A DNA stretch of 64,000 nt from Amphiura filiformis. Lineage: Eukaryota. Shown here piece after piece: positions 34,791 through 60,250 of the stretch; position 1 is the first letter of the stretch, and each line of letters begins with the position of its first letter. Position numbers and translations under genes: made by a program. The notes beneath the pieces are model-generated. The model saw only the letters and a program-made list of their open reading frames with translations, was not told where the DNA came from and did not search any database. The stretch lies in contig NC_092647.1 in NCBI RefSeq assembly GCF_039555335.1, forward strand, positions 51,925,740 to 51,989,739, given 5' to 3'.

Positions 34791-34831
34791 TATATATCAA
34801 GTTGTCTTCTTCCATTCTTTATTTAATCCAG

Positions 34832-35314
34832 ATCTCGATACTAATGGGATTCACCTGGATATTCGGCTATATAGCAACCTTCACTGGTATTGATGCTCTC
34901 TGGTTTATATTTATCATCCTCAACTCATCTCAAGGGTTCTTCGTCTTCTTAGCCAACACCTGCAATAGGCGTGTCTACAAATGCTATAGACAAGCACTCT
35001 GTGGACGAGGCAATAGAGTCAAACCGGAACTGGCACCAAAACTACCACAGCAACACCATCTTCAACCACAATATCCAATAGAAAACGATGGCAAATCATT
35101 GATTGCAGAAGCAATCAAGGAAGGGCAAGAGAGAGCACGAATCAAAGAGGTTAAGTATGAGGATGCACATAAACCAATTGGATACGACCCAGATAATCTA
35201 CCATCTTCGTCTCGTGCAAGACCATCTTTAGGATATTTGTTCTCGCAAAATCTTTGTGATCGGAGTCTGGTTATTCCAGTCGGAAATGCCGAAAGAGGAC
35301 AATCTGTACTTTAA
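34832..35314 (+). CDS. Exon 3 of GPCR paralog B, encoding TM6-TM7, the tail and the stop codon.
   Basis: Acceptor tttaatccag|ATC is identical to the other two paralogs. Encodes ISILMGFTWIFGY...NSSQGFFVFLANTC. Confidence 0.8.
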   Translation: MSILMGFTWIFGYIATFTGIDALWFIFIILNSSQGFFVFLANTCNRRVYKCYRQALCGRGNRVKPELAPKLPQQHHLQPQYPIENDGKSLIAEAIKEGQERARIKEVKYEDAHKPIGYDPDNLPSSSRARPSLGYLFSQNLCDRSLVIPVGNAERGQSVL

Positions 35315-36909
35315 CTATGTTGTGTACTTCTGATGGTGTTGGCCTTTTTAAGCCAGAACCATCAAAAGTTTTGAGTGCAAGCTGGATCCAAAACTTTCGG
35401 AAACATTTGTGCATAATAATAATATCATTATTACATTCATTAAAGTTAATTGATTAATGTGATCATTGTGATGCCATTCCGAGAGCAGACCAAGTAAGAC
35501 TGAAATTAAACTTGAACTTGAATGTTGGTTTCTATGATTGTTGTTCAAATCCTGAGCGGATTTCCAGACAATCACAGACAGTGGAAATGCCGCAGGAGCA
35601 AAAGTCAACTGCCCTCAGCCTTAAAATCTCTACTGGAGCAGAGCATAAGAAAGATTCGCGCCACAATATTGACTGAGAATTCGCAAATAATTTATTTGAG
35701 ATTAGGATGATATTGAGTCATTGACCCGGGTGATGGGAGTATTCAGTAAAAATGGGTGACGGGTATGTGCGGCTACATTGACCCACATTTTTCAACTCCG
35801 TCTCACTCAATGACCCTTTTTTGTTTTATTGAAATCCCTCTCACCCAGAAATCTCTCACTGAATGACCCAAAATTTGTCCCATTCTCACTGAATGACCTC
35901 TTTTTTTTGTCAGATTTTCCCCAGTCTCACGGAAAGACCCTCTTTTTGGGGTCTTCTCACTGAAAGACCCCCTTTTTCGGTATCTAAGCTGTACCAAAAG
36001 ACCCCTAGTTTCAAACTGCTGTCCGCACATCCCCGTCACTAAAGTCAAGCCCCCCGGATATTGAGCACCCGCGTTTGATGTGGGAGACCAGAATTGAAAG
36101 AATACTAGCAACTGGATTTGCCATCCTTATGCAATATGATCTAAGTGTTTGATTTGGTTATCGTTTGAATTGTATAATTTGTAAATCCACAATCTGATCA
36201 TTGGTTTTCAGGGACATTTTGTTTCGTTTAAGGCATAGGCTTTAGGCCAAAATGCATTCTGAATACGAGGATTGTCTTGATATCAAATAATTCTGATTTT
36301 TTGAAATTCACAATAAAATACAAATTTTATGTCAAATTATAGAAGGTAATTGTATTAAGGTGGTACTACACCCTTTGATGAATTTGTGACTATTTGTGCA
36401 TTTTTCTCAAAAAAACAATAGCACACTGGTAACAAACGTTATGTATATTATAGGGGCAAATACTCCAGTTACTACACTGGAATTTCAGTGACTCAAAACA
36501 ATCGGTACGTTATTTGTGATAAGAAAAGAGGCACCGCTAGAATGTACCTCAGTGCCGCCAAAAAGGGGCGTTAAGGGATTGCTTTACCTAGGGGGCCCGC
36601 AGAAATAAAGAAAACATACAATAATGGGGCCATAAAAGCAAAGAAAAGACACCTCAATGGGTCCGTAAAAAGGGGGCCATGCGTTCATTTTAACCCCGGG
36701 CCCGTAATGGCTCCCGGCGGCACTGATGTACCTCATTTATATAAAATGAACCACTTGCCTTGAATCACTGAAATTTCAGTGAAGTAATTGGATTCCTTGG
36801 CCCTGTAATATACATAACTTTTATCACCAGTGTGTAGTTATGTTTTGAGAACAATGCAAAATTAGTCACAAAATTTATCACGTTAAATGATTCCGAAATT
36901 CATCTTCCC

Positions 36910-37040
36910 TTAGGAAGTATTGTCATTTATATTACCAGATGTGTCCAGCAAAGGTCTGTTATATTTTTCTTTATAAATGAGTAAGACTGGTATACAAAAT
37001 GTAATGGCTGCAAGTGTTGCCCAATTCGTCCACATAACAC
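36910..37040 (-). CDS. MFS paralog 1 exon 11 (TM12, C-terminus, TAA stop).
   Basis: Acceptor tcgttacag|GT. Encodes GVMWTNWATLAAITFCIPVLLIYKEKYNRPLLDTSGNINDNTS*. Confidence 0.65.
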
Positions 37041-37192: not shown

Positions 37193-37375
37193 CAATATTA
37201 GGGATCATCATAACTAAAAGGAAGACAAGACCAGTGAAAGATCGAAGCCACATCAACAATCCCATTGCAATCCCTTCTGATACTGGGTACACTCCTTCAA
37301 CAATAAGTTCGCAATAGATAGGAGGAGTGCCATTTATGAGGAAGCCAAAAAGGATGTTTGAAGCGTAAAGGCTGG
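37193..37375 (-). CDS. MFS paralog 1 exon 10 (TM9-TM11).
   Basis: Acceptor tgtttacag|CC. Donor ATTG|GTACGT. Encodes ASLYAS...YCELIVEGVYPVSEGIAMG...VMMIPNI. Compare FLVCR FEFAVEITYPESEGTSSG. Confidence 0.7.
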
Positions 37376-38560: not shown

Positions 38561-38672
38561 CTAAATTAAAGTGTATAACACCTAAGGTTAAGAGGAGAAA
38601 CCACGTAAAGCAGAGGCAGACGATAAGCAGAGTAAAACTAGCTTCATTTTCCCGCCAATAATATCAACAATC
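38561..38672 (-). pseudogene. MFS paralog 1 exon 9 (TM8). It carries a 7-nt deletion relative to paralog 2, which causes a frameshift and a premature TAA.
   Basis: Acceptor tttctag|GATTGTTGAT. Donor TTTAG|GTAAAT. Alignment to 54230-54348 shows that catacag (plus strand) is missing. The downstream codons FTWFLLLTLGV are out of frame with the upstream codons RIVDIIGGKMKLVLLC. Confidence 0.55.
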
Positions 38673-39249
38673 CTAGAAATACAATGATAAAATTGGTTCT
38701 CAAATTATTCCCAATAACTGATACTTCCTGGTTACATAAATCTTTTGATATTCACGTGTGTATTTAGTATGATTATGGTTATATATGGCTAAACATCTTG
38801 TATTGAAGGGGTCTGCCCGTCAGTCCGAAACACCGTCATTCCGAAACCCCGTTAGTCCGAAAATTAACGGATTTTTAGAGTGACGGGGTTTCGCATGCAA
38901 AGTTAACATTATTTGTCTGTGACTATACAGAAGTTACAGTACGGTATATCAGCCATTATTACAAAACTAATATGCTGCTAATAAACCATAATGTCAATTA
39001 ATATGTACCAGATTATGATGTATATCATTAAGACTATAAATGAAAATATAGGTGGGTTCATTAAGAATAAAATACATCATTCTGCAATTCCCGAAAACCT
39101 TTACAAGCCAAAGAAACTAAAACTACGTCATGGTGCGCAGATCATCACTCCGCCTGCTTGACCAGCCTCGTGTGCATAAACGATGACGTAGTATCGGTTT
39201 CTTTTGCAAAGGATTTCGGAAATTACCGAACTGGTATATTTATACTCAC

Positions 39250-39317
39250 CTGGAAAATATAAGCCCTCCTGCAGCACCTGCCAAATTAGAGTAGGCACCG
39301 ATTCTTCCTGTTGTTTC
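39250..39317 (-). CDS. MFS paralog 1 exon 8.
   Basis: Acceptor catttcag|GAA. Donor TCCAG|GTGAGT. Encodes ETTGRIGAYSNLAGAAGGLIFS. Compare FLVCR [22 protein letters not shown]. Confidence 0.7.
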
Positions 39318-39518
39318 CTGAAATGTTAATCAACTAATCAAACATTTTTCGTAACTATTATCGTGTAAGGGGGTATGTCGGTGAGGGTTGTGTGAACGGG
39401 TGTATAGACGAGTATTCGTAATCACGTAATTATACTAGTCTTAAGACTACGTTCCTCATTTGTTATAAGAACCAAAATAATTTGAATCACTAAGGCATAT
39501 GTCCTAAAACATACTCAC

Positions 39519-39623
39519 TTGTTGAACGTTCATGGTATGCAGAAATATAGTGTCAATTTGAGTCCTCCATGAGTTGAAAAAACCAGCCCATATACAGTAA
39601 CAAAGCGCTGGTATCCAAAACTG
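39519..39623 (-). CDS. MFS paralog 1 exon 7 (TM7).
   Basis: Phase-0 acceptor gaataag|CAG. The alternative ccag|G lies 7 nt upstream and gives an immediate stop. Donor CAACAA|GTGAGT. Encodes QFWIPALCYCIWAGFFNSWRTQIDTIFLHTMNVQQ. Confidence 0.55.
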
Positions 39624-39895
39624 CTTATTCCTGGTATGGCATACAAAGACATAAAATAAATAATACATTTTCTATAATAATTCGATGATCATCGAGTGGG
39701 AGCTGCGCGGAGGCTTCCGATGCATTATTCTTATTAATATAGGCGAAAGTTTTCAAAGCCTATAACAATGAAGTTCTCATGCAAAAATTTAAGCTTTTTA
39801 TAAGTCATTTGGCCTTACTATCCCTGTGGGGATTTTGTACCTATAATTTGATCTACATCACAAGCAAGTCTTCATACGCTTCATCATACTCACAC

Positions 39896-40023
39896 TGCAA
39901 GAATTTTAGCACCAGGAATAAAATCTTCTCTTTTAGATTCAGCTGATGCACTAGGAGGTGTCGGAGGTTTGGCGGGAAAATATAGCCAAGTTAGAAGACA
40001 CAAAAATGCAACCCAAGCACACT
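39896..40023 (-). CDS. MFS paralog 1 exon 6 (end of TM6 plus central loop).
   Basis: Acceptor tctcattcag|AG. Donor TTGCA|GTGTGAGT. Encodes ECAWVAFLCLLTWLYFPAKPPTPPSASAESKREDFIPGAKILA. Compare FLVCR ...AFKEKPRYPPS. Confidence 0.7.
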
Positions 40024-41009
40024 CTGAATGAGACATTATATCAATATTAGATGTGAAAAATTTGAAGCTTAAAGTTTACTGTAAACATTGTAAAAATTTT
40101 AGCTTTTGAGTAGTATAGCTAAAATTTCTGTTGCAAACTACAGCACAATGGTTTGTGAGCATTGAAATGGTAGTATATCCCTAAATGTGATTAATGAATA
40201 AATAGCTGAGGGACGAGCTTTTGATACACTAGCGAATGTTCTCTTCGTTCCCCCATGGGTCTGATGCTGACATAAGGCCAAAAAAATTGTTGTGTTGCCC
40301 TCAACCGTCCGACCTTTTTTTTTTTTTTTTTTTGAATGATGATTTTTACAGATTTGTTCAAAAACTCAATGTTTTTCACTTAAAATTATTATTTTATTGA
40401 AAGACTAGTCTTTAATTGATGTCTAACACTACAGGTATCCAGAAGTCAAAATTGACAAATGTCCCCTAATTGAAGAAGCATTATTTAATATTTTTAAAAA
40501 CTGAAGGTTTAAAAATCGAGTATCGAAAGTTCAAGAGTTAACGTGCTTCGCGGTCACCATCTTTCGCGGTCACTGCAATACGTGGTTGGTTAATTCAAAG
40601 TTTGGTTAATTGTACTGATATTTTGGTCTTAGTGATTAGTGGTGTGATATTATTATTTACAAATAGAAAAGCAAGGTGGACCCAACTTTTATTCACCTTT
40701 CCTGACAGAACTGTCACATGAAGTTACACAGTTAGAATGCATGTACAATATTATGCTGATCACCTAGGCCTATAAAGGATTTCCATGCTCTTTTGATCCC
40801 ATTTGTTTATGTTCAAGTGTGGTCATTATTACACCCCTTTACATGCTCAGATGAGCGGCAGGTCAATGCTTGTTGTTATTATTATGTAAATAAGATGTTA
40901 ACTCCAAAATGGACATTGACCCTTTTGAGTACACAATTGATGTAAATGAGATGATAAACAATCTTGATCTCCAGCACATAATTGACATTATATAAGGAGT
41001 TGTGCAATA

Positions 41010-41425
41010 ATTATGTGTACCCCCGGGTGGTGAATTCTCAAAGTGGTCTGCCAAAAATCGATTCTCTCCCCCCATTTTTGACGTGCCCAAAAAATCTTTG
41101 CCCCCCCCCCTTTACATACTAAGATTTTGGGGAACCGAAATTTAAAACCTTATATTGTCTTATCATATAATGCGAGCGCAGCGAGCAGGAAATGTTGTTT
41201 ATTTGAACGTATTCCTAATGGTTTCCTACACCTTTTTAGGACGTAATATAGAAATGGTGCCCAAAATATCTGTGCCACAAATCGCTTGCCCCCCTTTCGA
41301 CCTGCCAAAATCGCTTGCCCCCCCCTTTCGACCTGACAAAAAATGCTTGCCCCCCCCCCCCTTTTGGCCTGCCAAAAAATCTTTGCCCCCCCCTATAATT
41401 CACCACCCTGGGGTACACATAATTA
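41010..41425. mobile_element. MITE with 30-bp terminal inverted repeats ATAATTATGTGTACCCC(C)GGGTGGTGAATTC and an internal array of GCC(T/A)G(C/A)CAAAA..GC(T/A)TTGCCCCCCC units.
   Basis: The two ends are reverse complements of each other. A second copy at 63045-63480 lies in the opposite orientation. Confidence 0.7.
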
Positions 41426-42499
41426 TAAACATTATAAAGAGTTATAAACAGTCTTGATCTCCAATCCTTATTGACATAATTGATTTATTGTGAGCTTGAC
41501 AAATAATAAATCTGGAGGTATGTGTAGAGGTATATTGATGTAGTAGTTGATGCAGTGACCGGAGTATGAGACAAAAAAGTAGTTGTGAGTGAAAAATATG
41601 ACATTGTTATTTTAGTCCGAAAGGCCCTTTCAGTGCTTTTGGAACTAATTAACTTAATTTGAACCCCTTAACGTAAACAAAAACAAAATTTGATATTTTA
41701 TTGGGGTGCGCACGACCTTGTTCTTCGCATTGCAAAAGTATGTTTTCCGAAATAATGTAAAGCGTAAAAGTTTTTAGCTGTGGTATTAAAATACTCGAAA
41801 ATGAAATTTTCCAACGTGTTTTAGAGACACCCTGCACAGTGTCATCGTCCCGATATCTTCATGGCAGAAAATGCCATGGTAGGGTGAATCCACAGCCACG
41901 AATGGGTGTTCACACCTGTTTATAAAACACATAATAGGCTGAAGGACATCCGACTAAGGCTAATGATATTAGCCTGTGACTGACCTCTGTACGGTCAGCA
42001 AGCATACATACGCCATTGTCTAATGCTTTGCCTTTACGATAGTCTCCTACACAGTCAGTTTGTGTCAGTCGGTCTGACACTCGTCGATCCTGTATGTTCG
42101 TGATAGCCACATACAGTCTGGGCCGAGACTACCTCCACGAGGCCTCGAGGGTCTACGCTGCGCTATATAAAATCTGATGATTTTGGTCACTTTTTCAGCT
42201 CAAGACGCACGCTGGTTTTTCAAAGCGCAACCTAACGACGATAATATATGTTGAACATATATGTTCAAGTGCAAGGAACCACATCTGGTTTCTTTATATA
42301 CGAAATCATTTACGGGAGATATTCATCATTTTCCACCCCGGTATCAAAAGATTTATCGTCTGAATATCAATCGTGCATAGCACATTTACGTGTATCGATC
42401 CCGTGTATTCATTTGAGTGTCTCTGGCTGTACTAATGTAATTATTAACCGGGCGATGTCGGTGTGCCCTGTATGAAGTAGTTTCATTGTGTATACTTGC

Positions 42500-42618
42500 C
42501 AATGTACATTAACAAATAAATTTCTTGTATATGTTTAGATTTGACTGTCGAAGTGATGTTAAGATGTTCCTCATCGCACAAAGACTTCACGACATAAGTT
42601 CCATTAGCTGGATGGAGA
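42500..42618 (-). CDS. MFS paralog 1 exon 5, a mini-exon encoding the N-glycosylated TM5-TM6 loop and the start of TM6. It uses a GC donor.
   Basis: Acceptor ttgtattccag|TCT. Encodes SLHPANGTYVVKSLCDEEHLNITSTVKSKHIQEIYLLMYI. The donor is ATTG|GCAAGT, the canonical GC-AG donor consensus. A length of 119 nt is the only one that reconciles the phase-2 end of exon 4 with the phase-1 start of exon 6. The block is conserved at 56845-56963 inside otherwise diverged introns. Confidence 0.5.
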
Positions 42619-43269
42619 CTGGAATACAAAATACGAAGCGCAATAATAAAGCAATATTAAAAGTGTGTACACAAAAGCTAACTTTACTAACACGTAGTAG
42701 GTGAACAAATGCCATATTCGATTTTTGATAGATAAAAATATGTTATTAATCATGATGAACACATTCAGTTGAACTCGAAATTATCATGTTTATTACATGA
42801 AAATACTAGTAAATGGTTATAAAAAAAGGTTGATATAATTAGTGACAGTAAAGAAGTATACGTAGGCTTACATTATTGAATCAACATATCTTAATGGCAT
42901 AATTATAATGGCTCACTTCAATACTGAACAATTCCGATTTTAGAATCTACCAGTTTATTGATCGCGAGAGCCCGAATAGTGAATGAAAAGATCAGGTGTG
43001 AAAATCTATCAATATCCCCGGTCAATTGTGCACAAAGTAATACAAAATTAATACATAAAATCAGACTTTTAAGCTTAAAAATGCAATAACCAGATTTATT
43101 TATTTATTTAATATTTCTTTATTTTGGATAGCTCTTTCAATACATATACTGGTCTCCCAAGAGGTCCAGATAACTGTTACATAAAATGTTAACAAAATAA
43201 TTATACAAAATATGATAAATAATACATATATTGAAAAACAATCATGCGATTATGGATTATGAATCTTAC

Positions 43270-43524
43270 TTAAACAATAGCATTTTTAAACATGTGTAGA
43301 CTCAAAGAGTCATAATCTAAACGCACACCAACTGGAAGGTTATTCCACAACTTAGTTCCTCTATAATAATAGTGAAAGGTACGTTTACCCAGAGTGTTCT
43401 TCCAAAGTGGAATAACTAAAGTTTTTGAAGATTGACTACGGGTACCTTTTGTATGCATACATTCAGTAAAAATAAATTGAGAACTCAAATAAGATGGTGC
43501 TGAACCTTGAAGGCACTTAAACAC
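43270..43524 (-). mobile_element. CR1/L2-type LINE 3' tail fragment.
   Basis: Encodes ...KRTFHYYYRGTKLWNNLP...SLHMFKNAI, the conserved LINE C-terminal tail motif. Confidence 0.4.
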
Positions 43525-43715
43525 TACAACAAGAAGCTGATTTTTTCACCTTTCATCCAGTTTTGTCCAATTTAATGATTTCATTAAGTCATTGACTACG
43601 GAGAAGTCTAGCTATAAGTTGGAAAGACATTCGATTGATCCAATATCGATACTTCCTTTTTATTTTGGCAAAAATATTATCTTAACTAATTTTATCACCA
43701 AATGGCACTGATTAC

Positions 43716-43922
43716 CTTGTACTGTCGGTGCATTTGAATTCAGATACTATTGACGGTCCAATCAGGAACGAGGCCGCCAAGCCAAGGAAACCTATAGATG
43801 TTAATACTCCTGTTGATGTTGTACGCTGATGAGGTGGAAACCAGGTGACTGAGAAGAGAGGAGCTCCTGTAATTAAAACTGGAGCTCCTAAACCATTAAA
43901 CATCTGCCCGATATTCATCGTC
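43716..43922 (-). CDS. MFS paralog 1 exon 4 (TM4-TM5).
   Basis: Acceptor cttttag|GACGATG. Donor ACAAG|GTAATC. Encodes FSVTWFPPHQRTTSTGVLTSIGFLGLAASFLIGPSIV, matching the FLVCR/SLC49 pattern S.WF..(Q/E)R..A......LG.A.GFL.PP.V. Confidence 0.75.
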
Positions 43923-44335
43923 CTAAAAGTAGCAAATAACGTTTTCTTTAGACAAGAATAAAACACGAAGATCGCGCCATTCCTGGGAAGGTATGTTCCG
44001 AAGGCGTAATGTTCCGAAGGCGCATGCAGCCTGAGGAAAATTCTTGTTGGAAGATTCTTTTTTTTTTCCTTCAGCATTTAATGTCGCGATAATGTTATCA
44101 CGACATTCGTAAAACTTTCCATGGAAAAGTTTTACAAATGGTGCGTTATTATCTATGTCGCTTCATTCATACACAATGATGGAGCGAAAAAAACATTGCG
44201 TGACGTCACAGGTGTGTGTAAATGTCATGTCAAAACCCATCCACTTCGTCTAAAAGCCTGGCAAACAAAAAACGCAAAATGTGGGTCGGTCGAGCCCCTA
44301 TTGAAGTGGCGTGTTTTTTCTACATACATTTCTTA

Positions 44336-44426
44336 CCATTTCATATATTCTGTTGGCACCGGAATACACCGTACAGCTGTTCCAATCAAAATCAGTGTCG
44401 ACGAACATAACATGGCAAGTTTCAAA
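44336..44426 (-). CDS. MFS paralog 1 exon 3 (TM3).
   Basis: Acceptor aaaatgcag|GT. Donor AAATG|GTAAGA. Encodes GLKLAMLCSSTLILIGTAVRCIPVPTEYMKW. Confidence 0.7.
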
Positions 44427-45559
44427 CCTGCATTTTAAAAATGAATAAGAACTACAATGAAAAAATACGAGTAAAATGTGACACAATCTGATCCAATCAG
44501 ACCAAAACACATTTCTAGTGCTATAATTAAAGACAGAGATAAAAAGATTACGATCCTTGATTGGTTTACACAGGTTAATCAGCGTGTAAAAGGAAGACCG
44601 ATCTATCTGGTGCTGATCGGAGAAAAGGAATAGCAGCAAATGGCGAAATATTACGTACTTTTACAAGGCAAAAAGCAGCTTTTCTAATTATTGTGGACAT
44701 GGTGCCTTCGGTTAAGAAAGTTTCCTACTATAAAGACCTAACTTTTGAGATGGTTTGCATGTCGAAAGGTGCAAAATTAACAATAAGGCGCCCGGTTATA
44801 AATACGCGTTCAGCAAGTCATCATCACGACACTTGTAAACAAACCGTGCTCGAGTTTGATTGACAGGTGACGTCAGACGCGATAAATTGTCTTTATCTTT
44901 CATTATACCCCTTTATACGTGTACCCTATTTTGAAATCCTAAAGACTGCTCCAAACGGTCCCCTTTCATTGGCTGACTTGGATCTGACTTACCAGCCAAG
45001 TTGGGTGTCTATTTCAAGTTCCAGTGGCGGCACCAGGAATTTTAATCCACCAGGTGCGACTCAGCATAATGTGAAATTTCTATAGAATTACAATTCAGAT
45101 CTTTATTCCGTTCTTTGATAATCAATGGTGCAATGCAGAGGAGTAGTTTTAAGATAAACTTAAGGTTATTAATCATTTTAAACTGTTGTGATTTGGTAGT
45201 TCACAGCATCTTACGAATTGTAGTGAGTTTTGGCAAAAACTGCATTGCTCAATTCATAGCGAGCGTGTAGAAGAATTAAAATATCACAGATATACTTTTA
45301 TAGATGCTGCGGTTCTTGAGTTACATTGTAAAGAGGTCTGAAACAACAACACTTTTGTAAAACGTACATAACTCATTAACAACAATAAATTAAGCAAGTT
45401 TGCAAAGTATACGATTTGTAGAATGAACTTTTGCAAAGCATCAAGGATTTAATTTTCAATAATATATTGATCTAGATAATGAAAATCGATTTTTAGGTTG
45501 CTTCGACCAACAATACCTCGCCTACCCTTAAAGTCTAGTGCAGAGCAATACATTCAAAT

Positions 45560-47060
45560 ACGCCCGCAAATACGTTAGCGAATCCGAATGTAGAAACATA
45601 CATGGATAAGATAATTAATCCTGAATGAAGAGATTTATACGTGTTGGGAATAGACATCAAAGGTATATTTTAAAACTGGTCAACAACACTCACTTTTTGA
45701 ACCGAATATTTCAGAGAAACCATTCTCCGTCCTCAGCGGTGTAATGCTGTTGGTAGACTGACTGATGATTCTCCAGTGACAGTGTTTCTAGATGTTATTG
45801 ACAATGTCCTTTTTGTCCTTTGTGATGGTGTTTCTAGAAGAGAATCATATATTCTAAAGATGCGCAATGGGCCTCCCGGTCAGCCCGATTATCGACAACT
45901 TATACATGGAATGGTTTGAAAACAAAGCGCTAACATCCACCGCTGACCCCCAAGAATTTGGCTTCGTTATGTGGACGATACCTTCGTGGTAATCAATAAG
46001 GAGAAAGTCCAACAGTTCACTGACCACATTAACAGTCAAAATGAACATATCAAATTTACCAACGATCCAGAGAAGGACGGTCAATTACCATTCCTAGATA
46101 CTTTGGTAAAAAGACAAACAGACGGTACGGTAAAGGTGAGTATTTACCGGAAACCTACGCATACTGACCAGTATTTGGCTTTTGATTCCCACCATCCACT
46201 TGAACACAAACTCAGTGTAATCAGAACCCTTTTCCATCGGGCAGATACTTTAGTTACTGATACGGAAGATCGAGAAAAAGAAATAAATTACGTCAAAGGG
46301 GCCCTTAGACGCTACAAGGAGTGGAGTTTTAAACGTGCTCAAACCAAAAAACAACCGGTTGAAAAACAGTGCGATTCGGAATCCTCTTCCAAGACATTTG
46401 TTGTAGTTCCGTACGTCCAGGGCCTATCAGAAAAGGTCAAAAGAATACTTGGCAGTTACGGTGTATCGGTGGTATTCAAACTGCACCAAACGCTTCGCCA
46501 ATTACTTGTTGCCCTGAAAGACAAACCTCGCGAGGAAGACAAGTCAGGAGTTGTGTACCGTGTACCCTGTGAAGGCTGCGAGAAAGTGTACGTGGGTGAA
46601 ACCAAGCGAACCCTCGGTGAGCGCCTGAAAGAACACACTGCCAAGACAACCTCAAATCAGTCGGCATTAGCAGAGCACAGCAAGGACACCGGACATAAAC
46701 CGGACATTGGAAATGTTAAAGTCCTCTGCAGAGAAGACAAGTTTTTGCCAAGGAAAGTGAGGGAAGCCATTAAAATCAAACAAGAGACAAGCCCCATCCT
46801 AAATAGGGACGGGGGCCTAGAACTTTCTAGAATATATGATTCTCTTCTAGAAACACCATCACAAAGGACAAAAAGGACATTGTCAATAACATCTAGAAAC
46901 ACTGTCACTGGAGAATCATCAGTCAGTCTACCAACAGCATTACACCGCTGAGGGCGGAGAATGGTTTCTCTGAAATATTCGGTTCAAAAAGTGAGTGTTG
47001 TTGACCAGTTTTAAAATATACCTTTGATAATTAATCCTGTTATATATCAATACTTCTAGG
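45560..47060 (+). mobile_element. PLE 3' half (reverse-transcriptase C-terminus plus GIY-YIG endonuclease, ORF 45971-46951) bounded by inverted terminal repeats of about 150-280 bp. It lies in intron 2 of MFS paralog 1.
   Basis: GIY-YIG core SGVVYRVPCEGCEKVYVGETKRTLGERLKEH. Reverse-transcriptase tail YRKPTHTDQYLAFDSHHP. The segment 45560-45850 is the reverse complement of 46800-47060. Confidence 0.7.
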
Positions 47061-47174
47061 GCGAATTTAATGAGCTGGTTTACAAAACATCTCAACCCAT
47101 ACTACCATAATGGGTAAATAACATTGCACAGTTCATGAAATGAATGATTGTTTGTTCTTTTATTTAAATCTGAC

Positions 47175-47285
47175 CTTTGTTGTCCATCAACCAAGAAAAG
47201 AAGGCAACGGTCACACACACGGACATTGGTCCCCATATGGTGAGTAATGCAATATCACCGTCATTCCACCCTAACACGGGTTTAG
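47175..47285 (-). CDS. MFS paralog 1 exon 2 (TM2).
   Basis: Acceptor attttag|CT. Donor AAAG|GTCAGA. Phase is consistent with exon 1. Encodes AKPVLGWNDGDIALLTIWGP... Confidence 0.7.
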
Positions 47286-48149
47286 CTAAAATATGAAAAT
47301 GATTGTGAAAAAATAACAAAACTATTTAGAAGACACACGTGTTGCTAGTGCTCATTAAAATGCGTTAAAGTGCAAAACCTGTCAAACTGCTTCGGCGTAT
47401 GTGTCGACCTCAGAAACTATAGAAGACAGCATAATGCGAGAATAGAAGGCCAACTTCAACTTTTTATATTTCGGTAGCTTTATATTTAGTTAGAAGGTAA
47501 TTTCGGATTTAAATTTAGACTGAGCTCAAAAAGAAACTTATAATTTTTCACAAGGTCATATCTTGAAATCCTGTCCATCAAATTGAACCAAAATTACACA
47601 CAGGTTTACTTCAATACTCTACTCTTAACACATGTCAGTAACCAATCAGTTATCCAACTGACACAACAGCAAAATGCATTGACATGGAACAGCTCTCTGG
47701 ACCACATTCACAGCCCAGCCCTGCTTCATGAAAAAAGTGTATGAAAAGCAGAAAGCAGCACCGTTTTATCATCTGTGCAAGGATCTTGTAAGCATTCTCA
47801 CAGATTTTTTGTGCTGGGTGCCAAATGTTGGGCTGTGAAAGTGGAGGAAGTCCAGGAAGCTGTCCCATGACAGTGCATTTTGCTGTTGTGTCAGTTGGAC
47901 AACTGCTTGGTTACTGACATGTGTTTTGCGTAGAGTATTAAGGTAATCCTGTGTGTAATTTTGGTTCATTTTGATTGACAGTATTTTAAGATATGACATT
48001 GTGATTCACAAGTTGTAAAAAATTATAAGTTTCTTTTTGAGCTCAGTTTATATCTTTTTGGTTCAATCAACTACTACAGTTTACTACAACTCTATTACAC
48101 AATACAATATAATAAACTACTAAATGCAAGTAGTAAACTCTTTGTATAC

Positions 48150-48351
48150 CTGTATCAGCTATTGATCCCCACGTATTCCATATTAAAGTTTGAGTACCCG
48201 CTAGAGCAGTATATAACGCCAAAAGATACCACCGCCGTCCATAGGTGGTGTATTGATGATCTTCAGGTGGTGTTGATTGATTGGTCCAGTTGATGTTAGT
48301 GCTTTCTGGAGTCGGTAAAGCATTTTTTAGTAACGCCGCCTTTTCATCCAT
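48150..48351 (-). CDS. Exon 1 of MFS (SLC49/FLVCR-like) transporter paralog 1, encoding MDEKAALLKN... and TM1.
   Basis: ATG at 48351. Encodes RRWYLLALYTALAGTQTLIWNTWGSIADT. Donor ACAG|GTATAC. Paralogous exon at 62518-62719. Confidence 0.7.
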
Positions 48352-50275
48352 GTCTGATATCAGATGACAAGTGCAGATGTTAACATTCGATACCTAATGC
48401 ATTTTCATTGTCTTTGACTTTGACGAAATACTCCGCAACGCCTCTTCTGAAGCCAAACGCAAAGGAATGTGAGAGCGCTGAGAGAGCTATTAATCTTGGA
48501 GTTTTTGCTGTTTTCTTAGGTGGTTGGTTACTTCTTGTTTGAATGCTTTTGAATTGTACTTCCAGCTAGGTTGTATCCCGGGTTGTGTGCAAAAACACGT
48601 ATTTTCACTTGTTCCTCAATGTTTTCGTAACTCGCTGGAGTATCTGTGCATTTGACAATAGAAAGTTTGCGAAACGCGATTCAAAAGCACAAACTTCAAC
48701 GTCTGGAGGATTATAGAGCTAGGGTTATCTATTCAAAACTACTATGCCATGAAGGCTTCTGGAAGTCAAAGTGAACGCGAAAATCTATAGTAAGCAGTAA
48801 ATTATATTTATTATTATATTTTGTATCTTAATAACAATCGGAGAAATACATCCAAGCAAGGCAGCTGAAAACAAAATTCAGTGCAAAAATACCAACCTCA
48901 GAATGATTGGGACCTTTTGGATCAAGAGGCAGTAAAATTCGGAAACCATGCAAACTGTTGATACAGATCACCGAGATTTACTACGTAGATATGAAGGGTC
49001 CGACTTACCACTTATCAGTGGATCCGACGTATGCCGCAAATACATGCAAATCTCCGCATATCAGATATGACTTTAATAGCTTTTAACAATCCATACACTA
49101 GAATTCACATATTATTCCTGTCCACGGATGTTCATCATCATAACCCTAAAATCAAAATAATCTAAACATTCCTTACGTGTGTCGGGATTGCAATGTTTCA
49201 TATTTGCTCTGGGAATCGCGTTAATCGTGATAGTTGTTATTGATTGTTTGATAAGCCACGTGAGTATAAAGTCCGCTTTTCTCGAAATGTACTACTGAAA
49301 ATTGCTAAACTTGATTATGTTCTGCCAGTTGAAACTGGTGTCATACCATTTGGTAGGCCTAGGAGCCGACCGGCATGACCGGGGGAGCCAAAGTTTCTCT
49401 CTCAAGGAGAGAGGAGTATTCATATATGATACAATAACTGAGATACGAATACAACCAAATAAAGAAATAATTTATATAAGTGAAACAAAGAATTTTACGG
49501 AAAAAGAATGTTCAGACTATAAGAGAAGGAATGGCCATGTACCGATAATAAAGACAAACAAAATCTCAAAAACGTGTTTACAGCCTTGTGATTGAAATAT
49601 CCTCACCGATCTTGTGTATCTTCAACAATCAAGTTTTTAAACATTGACTTTTCAAGCTTGTAAAATATAACGATCACCGTCGCATTATCATGATTATGGA
49701 GGCTTGAATGTTCAAAGTAGATTCGTCTGCCAAAATCCAATTTCGGTGAGTCATCACAATCTTGACTGAACTTAAGTTTTCCCTTAAGCGTGTTTGAAAA
49801 ATGACCGTAGAAGACCTTAGTAAAAAAAACAATAAATATTTCACACCAGCAGTGAAATCAAAAAGATCCAAAACCTGACCCTACCTCAGGACATCATGAG
49901 ATATGTCTGGTTGGCTTAAAAAACGAACTGGTTAAAATGCTTCAATTTTCAATGTTGAGCTATATTTTGTATTATTAACTTGCGACATTATTTCACTGAA
50001 ACTTAATTAAGCCATATGTAACAGGTTACCACATCCACACTACAGCAATGTTGAAAAATTTGTCACCTATACCACCATATTAGGTAGTTGATTTTGGTAA
50101 CTATTTTGTATTTATTTGTCCAATCCATTTCAACTAGGCAATCTAAATTGTACTTACCATTTACATCCCAAGGTATCTTAGTATATCCACCTCACACTTT
50201 TCAATATATATCCAGTAAAAGACAAAATACCAAAATTGATGCCTCATTATGATATCATGTATTCAAAATGGATGC

Positions 50276-50340
50276 CTAAATTTGACCTGAACAAAGTGAC
50301 CTATAACCTGACCTATGATGACCTATAACCTGACCTATGA
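50276..50340. repeat. Minisatellite (tgacctataacc / tgacctatgatgacctata units).
   Basis: Direct repeats are visible in the sequence. Confidence 0.6.
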
Positions 50341-51799
50341 TGACCTATAGCCTTTTTAAATCTCTTTTCCTAACAACACATTATAGGTATATAGTATTAA
50401 ATTGACTATGCATCCATTGTGGAAGCGAATATTTAATTTATCAAGTGTTTTCACAAATTTTCAATAGAGAGTATAAGAAAGGATTTAATGTATTCTATTC
50501 ATGTACTCTACTTAAACATGTTGAATAGAATAAATTAATGTTTGTTATGAAACACACATCTGAGTTACTAGGATACAGTAAACAAAAAATATATAGGGCT
50601 AAAATGATTTTAAATGGTTTAAAAGCACTTTGTATGTAGAGATATTTTATCAGTTCAGGACATGAGGTGATGAACATATTTATGTACTTCATAAATTTGC
50701 AACCAAAAAAATAAGAGGGGTACTGATAAAAATCATGGTATTATACCCCCCTTTTTATGTGTCTTAATTACATCATATATACACATTCCACGACTGACGT
50801 TTGCCTACGAAGGGGACTCAGGGAACTGCATCCAATTCTTGGACCTAACCATAACTTACGCTTCAAAGAGAATTAAAATATCCCATTTTATACGAAGAAA
50901 AAAGGCCAGAACAGTTCTTGTACCGATCTTCCTGTCAACCACAACCAGTTTTGGTTGTTTCCTACGTATGCCCAAATCATACGCTATGCAAGAAAGAGTA
51001 ACTTTAAAATTGTTGCTGAAAAGAAGGATTTCTCTACCAGTATGCTTCGACTTTATTTATAAATGCGTTTTTATAAATACGTAAGTGACCACCTCCGCGA
51101 TGCCATAACAGCTTATAGACAGTATGTCTTGAAGTGAACTTCTACATAGCGGATGGGCTTCCTATATAATTGAATGCAAAGGCGGTAAACAAAGCTAGAC
51201 TGTGCAGCAAAGCTGTCTATTTTGTTCAACTTTGTGTTTATATTTTAAACGTTGTTGTTTTTGATACATATTCCAAATTCTGAATCCACTCTCCTTGTGT
51301 AATAATTTTGCTGTTCAATGAATACTTAAATTTGATGATATTTATAGTTCCTATCCTTTTCAATGAGATTTGGTCACGCTTGCTGGTCTTGGTATATGTC
51401 GTGCCCATGGGTCACGTGCTTATTTATAAATATAGTCAAAATACAGCCGTACTGTCAAAAGCAAGTTGGTCGATCAATTTTAAAGAACGTCATAATTTCA
51501 TTGAAAGAAACCAAAGTCTCTTGCCATACCTTTGGTTAAATCAATTTTACTATTCAAAGTAGTTTATTTATTATAATACGTTCAATCTTACCTAGTAATC
51601 ACATAGTAACAAGGCACATGGTAACAATATAGTAGTACATGAATAAACAAAACGTTATACTTTATATAATTACACTTTATACAGGTACATCCAATATGAT
51701 TATTTAAAAAAATGTATTTTCATCAATCATCATGGTTTCAAAATCTGACATTCTGCCGTCTCTTTTACTTTCTCTATTTTAACATCTTAACAGGGAAAG

Positions 51800-52125
51800 T
51801 TTTCACTTAGGCGACGAAAAAACCCATGGTCTACGAGCCTGACCGACCCAGAATTTGCGTTTTGGAGAACTTTTTTTTAAATTTTGCTAAAATCAAGTAA
51901 AATCTGCCGTTTTGGGGCCAGAATTTATTAATTTTGGCTGAAAATGTTTAGAAATGTGTTTGCAAAAAATCTTCAGATTTTGTTCAGATTTGGCAGCTTT
52001 TGGGGTATTTTTTAGAGTAATTTTAGCCTCCAGAAAAAAACCCAACAACAACAAAAACGACCGACCCTACTTGAAAGGTTCGTCCGCCAGTAAAACAAGG
52101 TTGGGTTTTTTTTCGCCGCCTATCG
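51800..52125. mobile_element. MITE or foldback element with terminal inverted repeats GGCGACGAAAAAACCC....
   Basis: The termini are reverse complements. A related copy at 59790-60100 is inverted. Confidence 0.55.
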
Positions 52126-53366
52126 TTTCAATAATACAATCAAAATAAATTACAATCAGAATTATGAATGAAAGTAAAAAGAGCAGTCTAAAAACAGACC
52201 GGACATCCAGTAAAACATATAGTGATAAAAACATACATTTCGAAAAATGATGGACTAATCCAGGAAGGCCCTTGTTTTGAATGGAAAAACGAAACAAAAG
52301 ATTATATCTGAATATTATGAAAGATGTCGGATTATTGCACAATTTCAAGATTACTTTAAACGATGGATATTGTCTGGTGTAATGTATCTTCTTTAACCTA
52401 TATCTAAACAAATAAGGCTAACTGTCAGCATACTTTTTTGTATATTAGTTAATGTGTTAATGTATCATGAGTTTTATCAACGTTGAATTCAAATGGGACG
52501 CTGAGCTCAATAAAAATGACGACCAATTTCTTAAGGGTTTTCCAGAATAAACGTAAGTCGGAACTAGGTTTGTAGTTGACTTGTTGTGGGGGACGTAATG
52601 TTAATTGCTTCGGTTACCAAGTCGGGCAACGTTTGGGGAGCATTGACATCATTAATAAAGACCAATTTAATGGTCTTGACAATATAATTGAGAATGTTAT
52701 TGTGCCTCCATGTGAACCAACCTTGTTCAAAAGTAAGTCTTACTTATTTATAAGTAAGTCTTTAAAAGGGAATTTTGAAATGGTTACGTTAGTTGAGAGT
52801 CTCTCAGTTCCAGCTGGCTCGTCATTTATCAAAGATCAAATACTCCTTTGCCCCATCTCCCATCGTTTAAGATTGGTGTTATTATTCATTGTGTCAGCAA
52901 GAACATTGACCAAAAATTTCACCGTGTGGAAGAATGTATATTATGCTCTTCCAATGTTGACATGTTGCTTCCAGAGTAAAAAGATCGAGAAATCGCCATT
53001 GAACATTAACATGATTAACAAGGAGGGTTTTAACATGCGAGTTCCACATATTTTTAACTTGGTCCTAATAGGTTTTAGCACTTTTTTGAACAGTTTTGAG
53101 AGGAGTATCAACTTGGAATAGGGTTTTCCTGGTCCAGTATTGTTCATTATTGAGACGAGTGTCGAGACAGTTGACAATGGGACCTCCTTTAAATTCGACC
53201 AGTAGTCAGACAAAAAAATCGCCCAGACCGCCCTTGTGAACTTATTTACTTTCCTCTGTTGACAAGGGCGGTCTTCAATGAACGGCTATTTTCAGAGCCA
53301 CCAAAAACTTTTACAAGCGACAGTCTTTAGTGATCAGCTCTTTTCTAAGCCATCAGATTCCGATAT

Positions 53367-53512
53367 TCATATTTCATTGGAAGTATTCTCATTTATATTA
53401 CATGTACCAGATGTGTCCAGCAAAAGTCTGTTATATTTTTCTTTATAAATGAGTAATACTGGTACACAAAATGTAATGGCTCCAAGTATTGCCCAATTCG
53501 TCCACATAACAC
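53367..53512 (-). CDS. MFS paralog 2 exon 11 (TM12, C-terminus, TGA stop).
   Basis: Acceptor cgttacag|GT. Carries a 6-nt in-frame insertion and a 4-codon C-terminal extension relative to paralog 1. Confidence 0.65.
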
Positions 53513-53646
53513 CTGTAACGAAAGTAGATAAATAATTTTTAGAATAAACTAGACAATTTACAAATTAAAACTGATTTTAATTTTTTTTTAAAGCTACTTG
53601 ATGTCAAAATGCCATTGTTATATCGCTCTTTTTTGGGGGTACGTAC

Positions 53647-53829
53647 CAATATTAGGGATCATCATCACTAAAAGAAAGATAAGAGCAGTGAAAGCTCGAA
53701 ACCACATCAACGATCCTGTTGCAATCCCTTCTGATACTGGGTACACTCCTTCAACAATAAGTTCACAATAGATAGGAGGGGTGCCTTTTATGAGGAAGGC
53801 AAACAGGATGATTGAAGCGTAAAGGCTGG
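53647..53829 (-). CDS. MFS paralog 2 exon 10 (TM9-TM11).
   Basis: Acceptor ctatttacag|CC. Donor ATTG|GTACGT. Confidence 0.7.
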
Positions 53830-54229
53830 CTGTAAATAGACAAAATATCAAAGGTAAAGATGCATTACAAAACAAAACGTATAGTATATAATTATACCAA
53901 ATACATTTGCTCAATTGTTATCTAAACATTGCTATTAAATCCACTTTTATGGGAACTCCATGTTCACTGGAATGAGCGATCCATTTGGCGCTGACAACAG
54001 TATTTTATTAGCTGAATGTTACGCTAGTTCATGATCATCTGAATGGACCACACAGTAAAGTGGTGCAGTTTCAATAGGGAAAAACACATCTCTCTGATTT
54101 CTACGATAGAATCACTTTTTAGTGAAAATTTTGTCAAAGTAATAATTATATTGTGTAAAGCTTTTTTGTTTGACATTTGTTATAAAGTAATTTGATTTAT
54201 AATTATGATTCGGAATACTCCATATTTAC

Positions 54230-54348
54230 CTAAATTAAAGCGTATAACGCCCAGGGTCAGGAGGAGAAACCACGTAAAGCAGCATACAGAGGCAGTCGAT
54301 ACGCAAAGTAAAACTAGCTTCATTTTCCCGCCAATAATATCGACAATT
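54230..54348 (-). CDS. MFS paralog 2 exon 9 (TM8), intact.
   Basis: Acceptor ttttcag|AATTGTCGAT. Donor TTTAG|GTAAAT. Encodes RIVDIIGGKMKLVLLCVSTASVCCFTWFLLLTLGVIRFNLG. Compare FLVCR [28 protein letters not shown]. Confidence 0.7.
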
Positions 54349-54973
54349 CTGAAAATGCAATGATAAGAATTTCTTTCAATTACATGACAATTCCCGATCA
54401 TGTAAATAGACATACGTCCCTTACCCTTTGATACTAGTATTGACAGTAGCGTAGCCAGGATTTTTTAGTGTGAGGGGCAAAGCCAAATTTTAGTCCCCAT
54501 TTGTCAATTTTTGTCCCATTTTTAGTCATTTTAAGGTACTCATTGCCGTCCCATTTTAACCCTGATAATTTTCTGTGGGGGCAGTCACCCACCCCGGCTT
54601 CCCACTGGCTACGCCCATGAATATTCACGTGAGTGTTTTGTACGACTGTTTGTAGTTTCATGGCATAATCCGACGCATAGAAAGTAACATTTCATATCTT
54701 TGACTATTCAGAAGTAGGCTACAATAGCAATTCATTTAAACATATCACATAATTATTTAGTAGCTTTCGCGTTCGCTGCGCCGCAGCAAACTAATATGCT
54801 GTTCATAAACCAACAATAATTACAATTAATATGCAGTTATGCACCAGAAAAGTACGTCATAGTCGCTGCGTAGATTGTCCAATTGACCAGCCTCATGCGC
54901 ATAAACGATGACGTAGTATCGGTTTCTTTTGCAAAGAATTGCGGGAATTACCTAACTGGTATGTTGTCACTCA

Positions 54974-55041
54974 CCTGGAAAATATAAGCCCTCCTGCAGC
55001 ACCTGCCAAAGCCGAGTAGGCACCGATTCTTCCTGCTGTTT
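54974..55041 (-). CDS. MFS paralog 2 exon 8.
   Basis: Acceptor tatttcag|GAA. Donor TCCAG|GTGAGT. Confidence 0.7.
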
Positions 55042-55417
55042 CCTGAAATAGTATTCAACTAAACATTAACTTGTAGTAGGCCTATCGTGGGTGTGTGGGA
55101 TGGGGGTGTTTATGTGTAAGGTCAGAGATGCGGGAGAAGGGGTACGTGGATGTAACTATAATTATTTTGGTTTATCTCAAGTTCGGTAATGATGTAGGTG
55201 CGTATTTCGCTCGCCGCAGTATCAAATCGCGCGAGTAAAGTTAAACGCCCTGAGTGTATACGCACGCGTACAGGGGCGGTTTGTTAGCACGCTTGCGGCG
55301 CAACCGCGAAAGAGCATTAACGTCACTACCAAACTTGAGGTGAACCAAATTACGTTTCGAAGAAGGGCATTCATTTGTTTTGAGAAACAAAATAATTTGA
55401 ATCAAAGACATACTCAC

Positions 55418-55521
55418 TTGTTGAACGTTCATCGTAGTAAAAATATAGTGTCAGTTTGAGACCTCCACGCGTTGTAAAATCCAGCCCCTATGCAGAAACA
55501 AACCGTTGGTATCCAAAACTG
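55418..55521 (-). pseudogene. MFS paralog 2 exon 7 (TM7). A 1-nt deletion relative to paralog 1 causes a frameshift and an in-frame TGA before the donor.
   Basis: The exon is 104 nt versus 105 nt in paralog 1. The indel maps to ...tatttttactacgatg versus ...tatttctgcataccatg. The amino-acid sequence has also diverged (QFWIPTVCFCIGAGFYNAWRSQTDTIFLLR*). Confidence 0.5.
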
Positions 55522-55713
55522 CTTATTCCTGGAAAAACATACAAAAGTCATAATTATTATGACTTTATAATTTATTTGATATGAAGATCACTGACATGTT
55601 CACCGCTCACTCACACACACACCACCACCACCATTCACTCACTTCGTAGTCACACAATAAATAAACTGATAAATGTACCAATAATTAATTGGCATAATTA
55701 ATTATACTCACAC

Positions 55714-55841
55714 TGCAAGAATTTTAGCACCTGGAATAAAATCTTCCCTTTTAGTTTCAGCTGATGCACTTGGAGGTGTCGGAGGTTTGGCGGGAAAATA
55801 TAGCCAAGTTAGAAGACACAAACATGCCACCCAGCCGCACT
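55714..55841 (-). CDS. MFS paralog 2 exon 6.
   Basis: Acceptor tctcattcag|AG. Donor TTGCA|GTGTGAGT. Encodes ECGWVACLCLLTWLYFPAKPPTPPSASAETKREDFIPGAKILA. Confidence 0.7.
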
Positions 55842-56844: not shown

Positions 56845-56963
56845 CAATGTACATTAACAAATAAATTTCTTGTATATGTTTAGATTTGATTGTCGATGTG
56901 ACGTTAAGATGTTCCTCCTCGCGCAAAGACTTCACGACATAAGTTCCATTAGCTGGATGGAGA
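56845..56963 (-). CDS. MFS paralog 2 exon 5, a mini-exon with a GC donor.
   Basis: Same acceptor (ttatattccag|TCT) and same GC donor (ATTG|GCAAGT) as 42500-42618. Both N-x-T glycosylation sites are retained (NGT, NVT). Confidence 0.5.
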
Positions 56964-57310: not shown

Positions 57311-58012
57311 ACAGCAACTCATCTAGTTTTTAACCACACCGCACCTTAAGTTTCTTCAGCATTTAATTTTCTGCACTTTGGACCACATGCACATTGTTGC
57401 CAGCTTCCGGGACAGCAGATAATGCTTTTATGGAAGTCACCTATCAAGTATCAAGTATCAAGTATGATGAAAAACGTAATAAATCTAGTATACACTTTAG
57501 TCATATCTGTTCACTATATAGCATTGAAGAAACTCTCTAGAACTAATATTCGGTGAGAACCTTCGTGTGCCGCACATTCACAGCTTCCAATGGCAGCGAG
57601 TAATTCTATGTTTGCCTAAGGTTATTTTAAACAGTTGCGATTTGGTAGCTCACAGCATCTTACGAATGGTAGTGTGAGCTTTGGCAACAATTGCATTGAT
57701 CATTTCATAGCGAGTGTGTAGAAGAATTCATATATCACAGATATACTTTTGTTGGTCATGTGGTTCTTGAGTTATGTTGTAAAGAGGGCTGAAACAACAA
57801 CACTTTAGTAAAACGTACATAACTCATTAATAACAATAAATCAAGCAAGTTTCAATAGTATATGATTTATAGAATGAACTTTTGCAAAACTTCAACTTAA
57901 AAGGAAAAATGGCTGATCTCTCTCTCGGATGTCGTAGACTGCATATTATTTGCTATCAGCTTTGGCGTAAAATAATCTTATATGATTTTTATAACAAAAT
58001 GGCAATGATCAC

Positions 58013-58219
58013 CTTGTACTGTTGGTACATTTGAATTCTGAAACTATTGACGGTCCAATCAGGAACGAGGCCGCCAATCCGAGGGAACCTATAGATGTTA
58101 ATACCCCTGTTGATGTTGTACGCTGATGAGGTGGAAACCAGGTGACTGAGAAGAGAGGAGGTCCTGCAATTAAAGCAGGACCTCCTAGACCATTAAATAA
58201 CTGCCCGATATTCATCGTC
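58013..58219 (-). CDS. MFS paralog 2 exon 4 (TM4-TM5).
   Basis: Acceptor tatttcag|GACGATG. Donor ACAAG|GTGATC. The protein is nearly identical to 43716-43922. Confidence 0.75.
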
Positions 58220-60159: not shown

Positions 60160-60250
60160 CATTTCATATATTCTATTGGCACCGGGATACACCGTACAGC
60201 TGCTCCAAGCAACATAAGTGTCGACGAACATAGCATGGCAATTTTCAAAC
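60160..60250 (-). CDS. MFS paralog 2 exon 3.
   Basis: Acceptor caaaatacag|GT. Donor AAATG|GTATGG. Encodes GLKIAMLCSSTLMLLGAAVRCIPVPIEYMKW. Confidence 0.7.

Follow-up and report, generated by a model that had tools for sequence, protein, structure and literature searches.

The locus examined here raises the question of why two neighbouring copies of a transporter gene in the brittle star Amphiura filiformis should each carry a frameshift that the other copy lacks. The window, by which we mean the whole stretch of DNA that was analysed, comprises 64,000 nucleotides (nt) of the forward strand of contig NC_092647.1 (assembly GCF_039555335.1, positions 51,925,740 to 51,989,739), and all positions given below are counted from its first letter. 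An earlier note, made from the letters of the window, had described reciprocal frameshifts in two paralogues of the major facilitator superfamily (MFS) and had left three explanations open, namely fresh pseudogenisation of both duplicates, indel errors of the assembly, and rescue of each copy by alternative splicing. In our analysis the first of these was the best supported, the second stayed a live rival, and the third appeared functionally unlikely. Judged by sequence, the two copies (P1 and P2) are tandem SLC49A4/DIRC2-type MFS transporter paralogues. We think it probable that both lesions are real germline variants, either fixed or segregating, and that they represent recent inactivating mutations in redundant duplicates. 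P1 and P2 would then most likely be very young pseudogenes or null alleles, which is an ordinary outcome of gene duplication.

Comparison of the window with itself revealed two collinear, diverged multi-exon gene copies, both minus-strand, which span about 36.9-50.1 kb and 53.4-63.9 kb. We built exon models from the translated conserved blocks and from alignment of their flanks, and obtained 11 coding exons per copy (Table 1). The acceptors were AG throughout and the donors were GT, save that of intron 5 in both copies. Here the GC donor ATTG/GCAAGT, which is a good GC-AG consensus, was conserved and in phase in P1 as well as P2. The nearest GT was tried as a donor for this intron and rejected, since it threw both copies out of frame while the GC donor restored the phase. 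Automated gene models may stumble at this intron, as the choice of a GT donor would make both genes look frameshifted. The raw coding sequences (CDSs) measured 1466 nt in P1 and 1487 nt in P2 (both 2 modulo 3), and adding back 7 nt and 1 nt, respectively, gave uninterrupted open reading frames (ORFs) of 490 and 495 amino acids (aa). Given the GC donor at intron 5, no further stop, splice-site or start defect was found in either 11-exon model, and the statement of the earlier note that all other exons are intact in both copies thus holds. We also considered whether P1 and P2 might be uncollapsed haplotypes of one gene. This was rejected, as the exon identity was 85-96%, the introns were mostly unalignable, and the gene sizes were 11.4 and 9.4 kb.

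At the start of P2 we observed a private out-of-frame upstream AUG at -7 (62720-62726, minus strand; ggacATGG) that lies in a strong context, encodes the peptide MDHG followed by a stop, and overlaps the main start. P1 has no equivalent of it. This upstream AUG might lower the translation of P2. A 7-nt tandem duplication at the P2 start codon was considered too and was disfavoured by alignment scoring.

We then placed the two lesions on the gene models and on the protein fold. As a structural proxy for P1 and P2 we used the AlphaFold model of P0003, an intact paralogue on the same chromosome that is 54% identical. The model has a predicted local distance difference test (pLDDT) score of 82, a predicted template-modelling (pTM) score of 0.81 and 6+6 helices, and the repaired copies align to P0003 without gaps in the C-domain. 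The P1 lesion was as the earlier note had described it, with exact exon coordinates (38561-38672): exon 9 lacks the 7 nt CTGTATG relative to P2 and runs into a TAA, the shifted frame reading ...SSASALRGFSS before the stop. The deletion junction is at 38613/38614, and CTG microhomology makes it ambiguous across the 4 nt of 38611-38614. The missing bases correspond to codons 367-369, which by the P0003 model lie in transmembrane helix 9 (TM9) and not in TM8, where the note had put them.

Exon 7 of P2 is 1 nt short in comparison to P1 and meets a TGA 11 nt before its donor, again in agreement with the note. The start of this exon had been given correctly (55418); its end is at 55528, whereas the acceptor end had been drawn 7 nt short, at 55521. 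The note had also located the gap at a T-run, and this was not the best alignment. The T5 run of P2 occupies 55439-55443, and the cheapest position for the gap, 55436/55437, sits 2 nt outside it. Placed there (TTAC[A]TACG), the gap leaves three mismatches, all of them synonymous, and no amino-acid change, as against five mismatches and two amino-acid changes for the T-run; the local peptide IFLHTMNVQQ is then the same in P1 and P2. The deletion falls in codon 318, at the C-terminal end of TM7 as mapped on the P0003 model.

Distant intact paralogues align ungapped across both lesion sites, establishing that the full-length state is ancestral and that each deletion is derived and private. A loss flanked by microhomology is typical of deletions arising by replication slippage or repair, that is, of genuine small deletions. 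Under the usual exon-junction rule, transcripts whose premature stop precedes the last exon junction by a long way are expected to undergo nonsense-mediated decay (NMD). Since the stops of P1 and P2 lie 210 and 381 nt upstream of that junction, the transcripts of both copies should be NMD substrates.

The age of the lesions could be estimated from the divergence between the copies. For repaired P1 against repaired P2 we obtained dN=0.06 and dS=0.17, with dN/dS=0.35, and by site counts pN/pS was 0.38 overall (Fisher p=1.5e-7). Exons 8-11, which are downstream of the P2 stop, gave pN/pS=0.42 (p=0.007), with a dN/dS of 0.39-0.42. When the amino-acid changes were polarised with 17 more distant homologues, the derived changes were distributed 19:19 between P1 and P2, indicating that drift has not gone on for long in either lineage. 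The idea that one copy is an old pseudogene was rejected in view of this balance and of the selection still visible downstream of the lesions. Exon 7, which the earlier note had called unusually diverged, was only marginally so (8 of 37 against 51 of 453 amino-acid differences, Fisher p=0.07). The per-exon dN/dS proposed there as a check came to 0.26 for this exon and was not elevated, and exon 2 was equally diverged. A special relaxation of P2 exon 7, or a non-coding status for it, was rejected on these figures.

The introns provided a neutral yardstick. In the alignable intron flanks, mismatches amounted to 0.173 per site (equal to dS) and indel events to 0.029 per site, and 89% of these indels were not multiples of three. 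At this rate, neutrality from the duplication onwards should have left about 19 frameshifting indels in a copy, and each copy holds one. The unconstrained phase of each copy is about 5% of the post-duplication time, with a 95% upper bound of about 25%. The relaxed constraint expected of a pseudogene (dN/dS moving toward 1, and further lesions) was not seen in these copies, where dN/dS is 0.35 with one lesion per copy. With constraint retained and the lesions single, pseudogene status is compatible only with a very recent inactivation.

We further examined the family to which the copies belong. For repaired P1, the Pfam family PF07690 (MFS_1) scored 64.9 bits over residues 57-437 (gathering cutoff 33.4, E=7.7e-18). 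Aligned across more than 90% of its length, repaired P1 shared 43-54% identity with intact SLC49A4 homologues of echinoderms. Among the database matches, 23 of 27 were named as SLC49A4/DIRC2 homologues, those of Amphiura filiformis foremost, the names being source annotations rather than a phylogeny. The named matches came from brittle stars, sea stars, crinoids, sea urchin, chiton, soft coral and mantis shrimp. The PDB relatives of the repaired protein were FLVCR1 and FLVCR2 (SLC49A1/A2) only, with E between 8e-16 and 3e-12 (phmmer). The P0003 model likewise matched FLVCR2 and FLVCR1 in Foldseek (E about 1e-17, template-modelling score up to 0.93), the next MFS protein following at about 1e-8.

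By database matches, A. filiformis has at least seven SLC49A4-like loci on at least four chromosomes, versus two or three in sea stars. One of these, XP_072018973.1 (301 aa, on another chromosome, of 97.7 Mb), is a third close paralogue, 83-87% identical across exons 1-6 and with 9 aa inserted where exons 3 and 4 meet. Its RefSeq model stops exactly at the end of exon 6, and on sequence it probably represents a dispersed copy that is truncated or decaying. As read from the protein record, its end fits read-through into an intron-6-like GTG TGA, as found in the DNA of P1 and P2.

Together, these observations have led us to favour the following course of events. A local duplication (dS about 0.17) gave rise to P1 and P2, and purifying selection acted on both through most of their history. 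Very recently, each copy would have gained an inactivating deletion of its own, flanked by microhomology in P1 (7 nt in TM9) and of a single nucleotide at the end of TM7 in P2. Each would now encode a truncated transporter of half to two-thirds length, its premature-stop mRNA being the expected target of NMD. The lesions may be either fixed or null alleles segregating on the sequenced haplotype. As the family is expanded, with at least seven loci and a third close copy cut off after exon 6, the loss of this sub-clade is probably tolerated, and the early end of XP_072018973.1 fits a birth-and-death turnover in the clade. The sequence directly supports the lesions and their youth, the gene structures, the family membership and the signature of selection, and from these we infer that the variants are real and germline, that NMD acts on the transcripts and that the genes are dispensable.

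The assembly itself supplies the chief competing explanation, in which at least one of the lesions is a nanopore consensus error, or a product of chimeric polishing at a heterozygous indel, and the genes are really intact. We regard this as possible, though doubtful, and if either lesion is an artefact, it is more likely the 1-nt one. The source assembly was made from Oxford Nanopore R9.4.1 reads with Guppy 2.3.5 basecalling and Flye, followed by two nanopore and two Illumina rounds of Racon (PMC11310086). Its Merqury quality value (QV) is 31.6 (6.8e-4 errors per base), its heterozygosity is 3.22%, and haplotypes were purged with purge_dups (PMC11310086). Residual long-read indels are known to break genes up and, where sequence is repeated, to escape polishing with short reads (PMC12007338, PMC8812927, PMC9262707); the residual errors of R9.4.1 reads are mostly of homopolymer length (PMC8812927, PMC9262707).

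Several of these points weigh against real lesions. Assuming uniform errors, the Merqury rate predicts roughly one in each 1.5-kb CDS; the basecaller was an old one, Racon was the sole polisher, and heterozygosity stood at 3.22%. Short-read mapping is ambiguous between paralogues of about 90% identity, which is where long-read indels persist. Exactly one lesion in each otherwise well-conserved CDS is the pattern that sparse random errors produce, while two independent inactivations within the last few percent of the history would have to coincide by chance if constraint was not lost on the two copies together. Only 2 nt separate the 1-nt gap from the T5 run, the C of a CpG follows 4 nt downstream of the gap, and the peptide around the gap is perfectly conserved after one base is restored.

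Other observations speak against sequencing error. The 7-nt loss in P1 occurs in non-repetitive sequence with CTG microhomology and involves no change of homopolymer length. The 1-nt loss in P2 is best placed outside the T-run, a position within the run being less likely at a cost of two extra mismatches. All eight homopolymers of at least 5 nt in the P1 and P2 CDSs are in frame, and no frameshift interrupts the other ORFs of the window, which add up to about 9 kb (the gag and pol of a Ty3/gypsy element and two 2.4-kb exons of adhesion G-protein-coupled receptors, GPCRs). By our own calculation, the chance that two indels among about 12 kb would fall one in each 1.5-kb CDS is about 0.03. The BUSCO completeness of the assembly, 92.7-96.1% (PMC11310086), speaks for far fewer indel errors in genes than the genome-wide QV would suggest.

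If the lesions are real, function could still be kept by alternative splicing, as the earlier note had allowed. The RefSeq model of P2 does in fact take this route, with a weak donor and at the cost of part of a helix. XP_072020444.1 (466 aa, on the 64.3-Mb chromosome) equals our P2 model minus 29 aa of exon 7 (VCFC...NVQQ), and it splices from an internal donor whose GT arose by the P2-specific change CTT>GTT (L296V); 13 of 17 outgroups have Leu at this position. XP_072020444.1 is probably a workaround that preserves the ORF, or an artefact, and by the modelled fold it would lack most of TM7. For P1 we found no protein model among the matches in 5.8 billion protein clusters. Proteins of A. 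filiformis derived from transcripts or from Logan were absent from the protein database for P1 and P2 and for the intact paralogues alike, and their absence therefore says nothing about expression.

To cover the splicing options, we scanned the lesion exons and their surroundings for every alternative GT donor or AG acceptor that would give an in-frame, stop-free product. P2 had one such option (the donor at -86, as used by RefSeq) and P1 had three (exon 9 donors at -44 and -41, and an acceptor at +35). That the P2 donor GT was newly created by a substitution private to this copy, and is used in an annotated model, speaks for its use. However, this donor (ACG/GTTTGT) is weak, with T at both +3 and +4, and T at +3 occurs in 0 of 20 real donors of the two genes. 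It must also compete with the consensus donor CAA/GTGAGT located 86 nt downstream. The 29 aa that it removes make up most of TM7, and the topology of TM8-12 would be inverted in a 12-TM MFS fold. In the portion of exon 7 that this donor skips, dN/dS is not raised, indicating that the portion was coding until recently. The P1 options remove or misread 12-16 residues of TM9, and P1 is without a protein model. Skipping the whole lesion exon (exon 9 in P1 or exon 7 in P2) breaks the frame in either copy. Since every in-frame rescue deletes part of a transmembrane helix, functional rescue is unlikely, and we give the retention of function through splicing very little credence. We also considered a read-through chimera cis-spliced from the 5' part of P2 and the 3' part of P1. 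P2 is upstream, and avoiding its exon 7 lesion would take P1 exons 7-11, which include the exon 9 lesion; this candidate was rejected.

Restoration of the frame by programmed -1 ribosomal frameshifting is the least probable of the explanations, and we consider it extremely unlikely. Both lesions need a net -1 shift, and a near-slippery heptamer, A-UUU-UUA, stands directly 5' of the P2 gap. Against this, the heptamer is imperfect (its first base is A instead of U), shuffled controls had more structure than the spliced mRNA that follows it (z=+1.37), and P1 has no slippery site before its TAA. We know of no precedent for programmed -1 frameshifting in the SLC49A4-type family. Taking the two routes for P2 together, it is highly improbable that its lesion is bypassed in vivo, by the new internal donor or by -1 slippage at A-UUU-UUA, with the frameshifted duplicate kept in use. 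If the new donor route were true, the product would be an 11-helix SLC49A4 derivative without TM7 that might have a new non-transport or regulatory role.

Returning to recent inactivation as the preferred explanation, its biological weight is modest. If the lesions are real, they would amount to a near-simultaneous loss in both members of a young tandem pair, and to textbook birth-and-death turnover in a lineage-specific expansion of SLC49A4. For annotation, XP_072020444.1, being probably an artefact, should not serve as a functional SLC49A4 sequence, and P1 stands without a protein model. Gene-family counts for this brittle-star genome, a nanopore assembly of QV 31.6, may be skewed by decaying copies or by residual indels.

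Within the two genes we also observed a conserved element at the 5' end of intron 8 that, in the window, is confined to P1 and P2. It contains a 37-nt identical core, TTTGCAAAAGAAACCGATACTACGTCATCGTTTATGC, with a TGACGT that resembles a half-site of the cAMP response element (CRE), and it is conserved better than the exons. A structured RNA was rejected for this element, as it gave no Rfam match and no RNA-fold signal. It may act as an enhancer within the intron or in splicing, or may instead be a tract of gene conversion. Intron 2 of P1 has an insertion with a 326-aa ORF (45971-46951, plus strand) that showed a weak, sub-threshold match to a GIY-YIG nuclease; this insertion is probably a young mobile element. 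An interspersed repeat family of about 350 nt has copies in the introns of both SLC49A4 genes, and no tRNA-like head was detected on it by ARAGORN.

Elsewhere in the window, the Ty3/gypsy element has long terminal repeats (LTRs) of 162 nt that are identical at 161 of 162 positions (99.4%). It encodes a gag-like ORF of 284 aa (24468-25322) and an overlapping pol of 1111 aa (25247-28582) with reverse transcriptase, RNase H and integrase. On either side of it lies one member of another duplicated gene pair, the large adhesion-GPCR exons, whose ORFs of 786 and 808 aa are 92% identical, differ by an in-frame 54-nt indel, and share the same AAG/GTAA donor end. Blocks flanking these exons are repeated too (73-1079, 14871-15669 and 34739-35681), and the pair with its flanking repeats suggests a segmental duplication of about 20 kb. 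The fragment resembling a long interspersed nuclear element (LINE) carries an Exo_endo_phos endonuclease ORF and a reverse-transcriptase ORF in different frames, which indicates a degenerate copy. The positions of these and of all other features are collected in Table 1.

Table 1. Features of the window, with positions counted from its first letter
Feature	Position	Strand	Basis or remark
P1, SLC49A4-like, start to stop codon	36910..48351	-	exon models, Pfam MFS_1, echinoderm homologues
P1 exons 1-6	48150-48351, 47175-47285, 44337-44427, 43716-43922, 42500-42618, 39894-40023	-	
P1 exons 7-11	39519-39630, 39250-39317, 38561-38672, 37193-37375, 36910-37040	-	
P2, SLC49A4-like, start to stop codon	53367..62719	-	exon models, RefSeq XP_072020444.1
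P2 exons 1-6	62518-62719, 61538-61648, 60160-60250, 58013-58219, 56845-56963, 55712-55841	-	
P2 exons 7-11	55418-55528, 54975-55042, 54230-54348, 53647-53829, 53367-53512	-	
GC-type donor of intron 5 (ATTG/GCAAGT), first bases GCAA	P1 42496-42499; P2 56841-56844	-	needed for correct phase in both copies
Private 7-nt deletion in P1 exon 9, CTGTATG missing	38611..38614	-	pairwise alignment with P2
Premature TAA of P1	38588..38590	-	product 374 aa; 210 nt upstream of last exon junction
Private 1-nt deletion in P2 exon 7, best placement TTAC^TACG, A missing	55436..55437	-	alignment with P1
Premature TGA of P2	55429..55431	-	product 319 aa; 381 nt upstream of last exon junction
Internal GT donor CCAACG/GTTTGT, skips 86 nt of P2 exon 7 in the RefSeq model	55502..55503	-	absent in P1
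Conserved element, 5' end of intron 8	P1 39158..39249; P2 54883-54974	-	about 88% identical, ungapped (115 columns)
Insertion of 1.37 kb in P1 intron 2	45656-47028		201-nt inverted terminal repeats, 99.5% identical; not in P2
Interspersed repeat family, about 350 nt	22600-22956, 23463-23795, 45159-45533, 57623-57895, 59383-59712		76-89% identical
Ty3/gypsy LTR retrotransposon, apparently intact, very young	24381-29685		between two adhesion-GPCR copies
Adhesion/secretin-type GPCR (7tm_2) large exons, second duplicated gene pair	10960-13320, 30978-33404	+	
LINE-like non-LTR retrotransposon fragment	2869-5617	+	
Perfect 162-nt inverted repeat	16417-16578 / 16863-17024		
Tandem direct repeat of 144 nt	18324-18467 / 18492-18635		98.6% identical
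Internally repetitive block of 430 nt, inverted	40995-41426 / 63062-63493		in P1 intron 5 / upstream of P2 exon 1

The copies can be compared with several known systems. Human SLC49A4/DIRC2 is an H+-driven lysosomal exporter of pyridoxine, or vitamin B6 (PMC9719028). P1 and P2 are like this family in their MFS_1 domain, in their 12-TM architecture and in the 43-54% identity to echinoderm homologues; they differ from it in belonging to a brittle-star-specific expansion of at least seven loci and in being frame-disrupted, both of them, as assembled. The lysosomal, H+-coupled transport of vitamin B6 is established for the human protein only. The choline/ethanolamine (heme) transporters FLVCR1 and FLVCR2 are the closest solved structures to the family of P1 and P2, being its best matches in sequence and, for the P0003 model, in fold; other MFS transporters trail their fold match by about 8 orders of magnitude in E. 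They are, however, only about 20-22% identical and belong to another subfamily (A1/A2 and not A4-like).

The lesions themselves have two counterparts. In nanopore assemblies, residual indels are known to fragment genes; the source assembly is likewise of R9.4.1 reads at QV 31.6, and the RefSeq model of P2 sidesteps the frameshift. The lesions of P1 and P2 differ from such indels in that the P1 loss is no change of homopolymer length, the P2 loss is best placed outside a homopolymer, and the other ORFs of the window are clean. The second counterpart is the young unprocessed pseudogene, or segregating null allele, of tandem families. P1 and P2 are like these in keeping their introns, in their tandem arrangement, in the single private disabling indel, in the residual purifying selection and in the presence of other paralogues. 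They differ in that both members of the pair would have been struck at about the same, very recent time.

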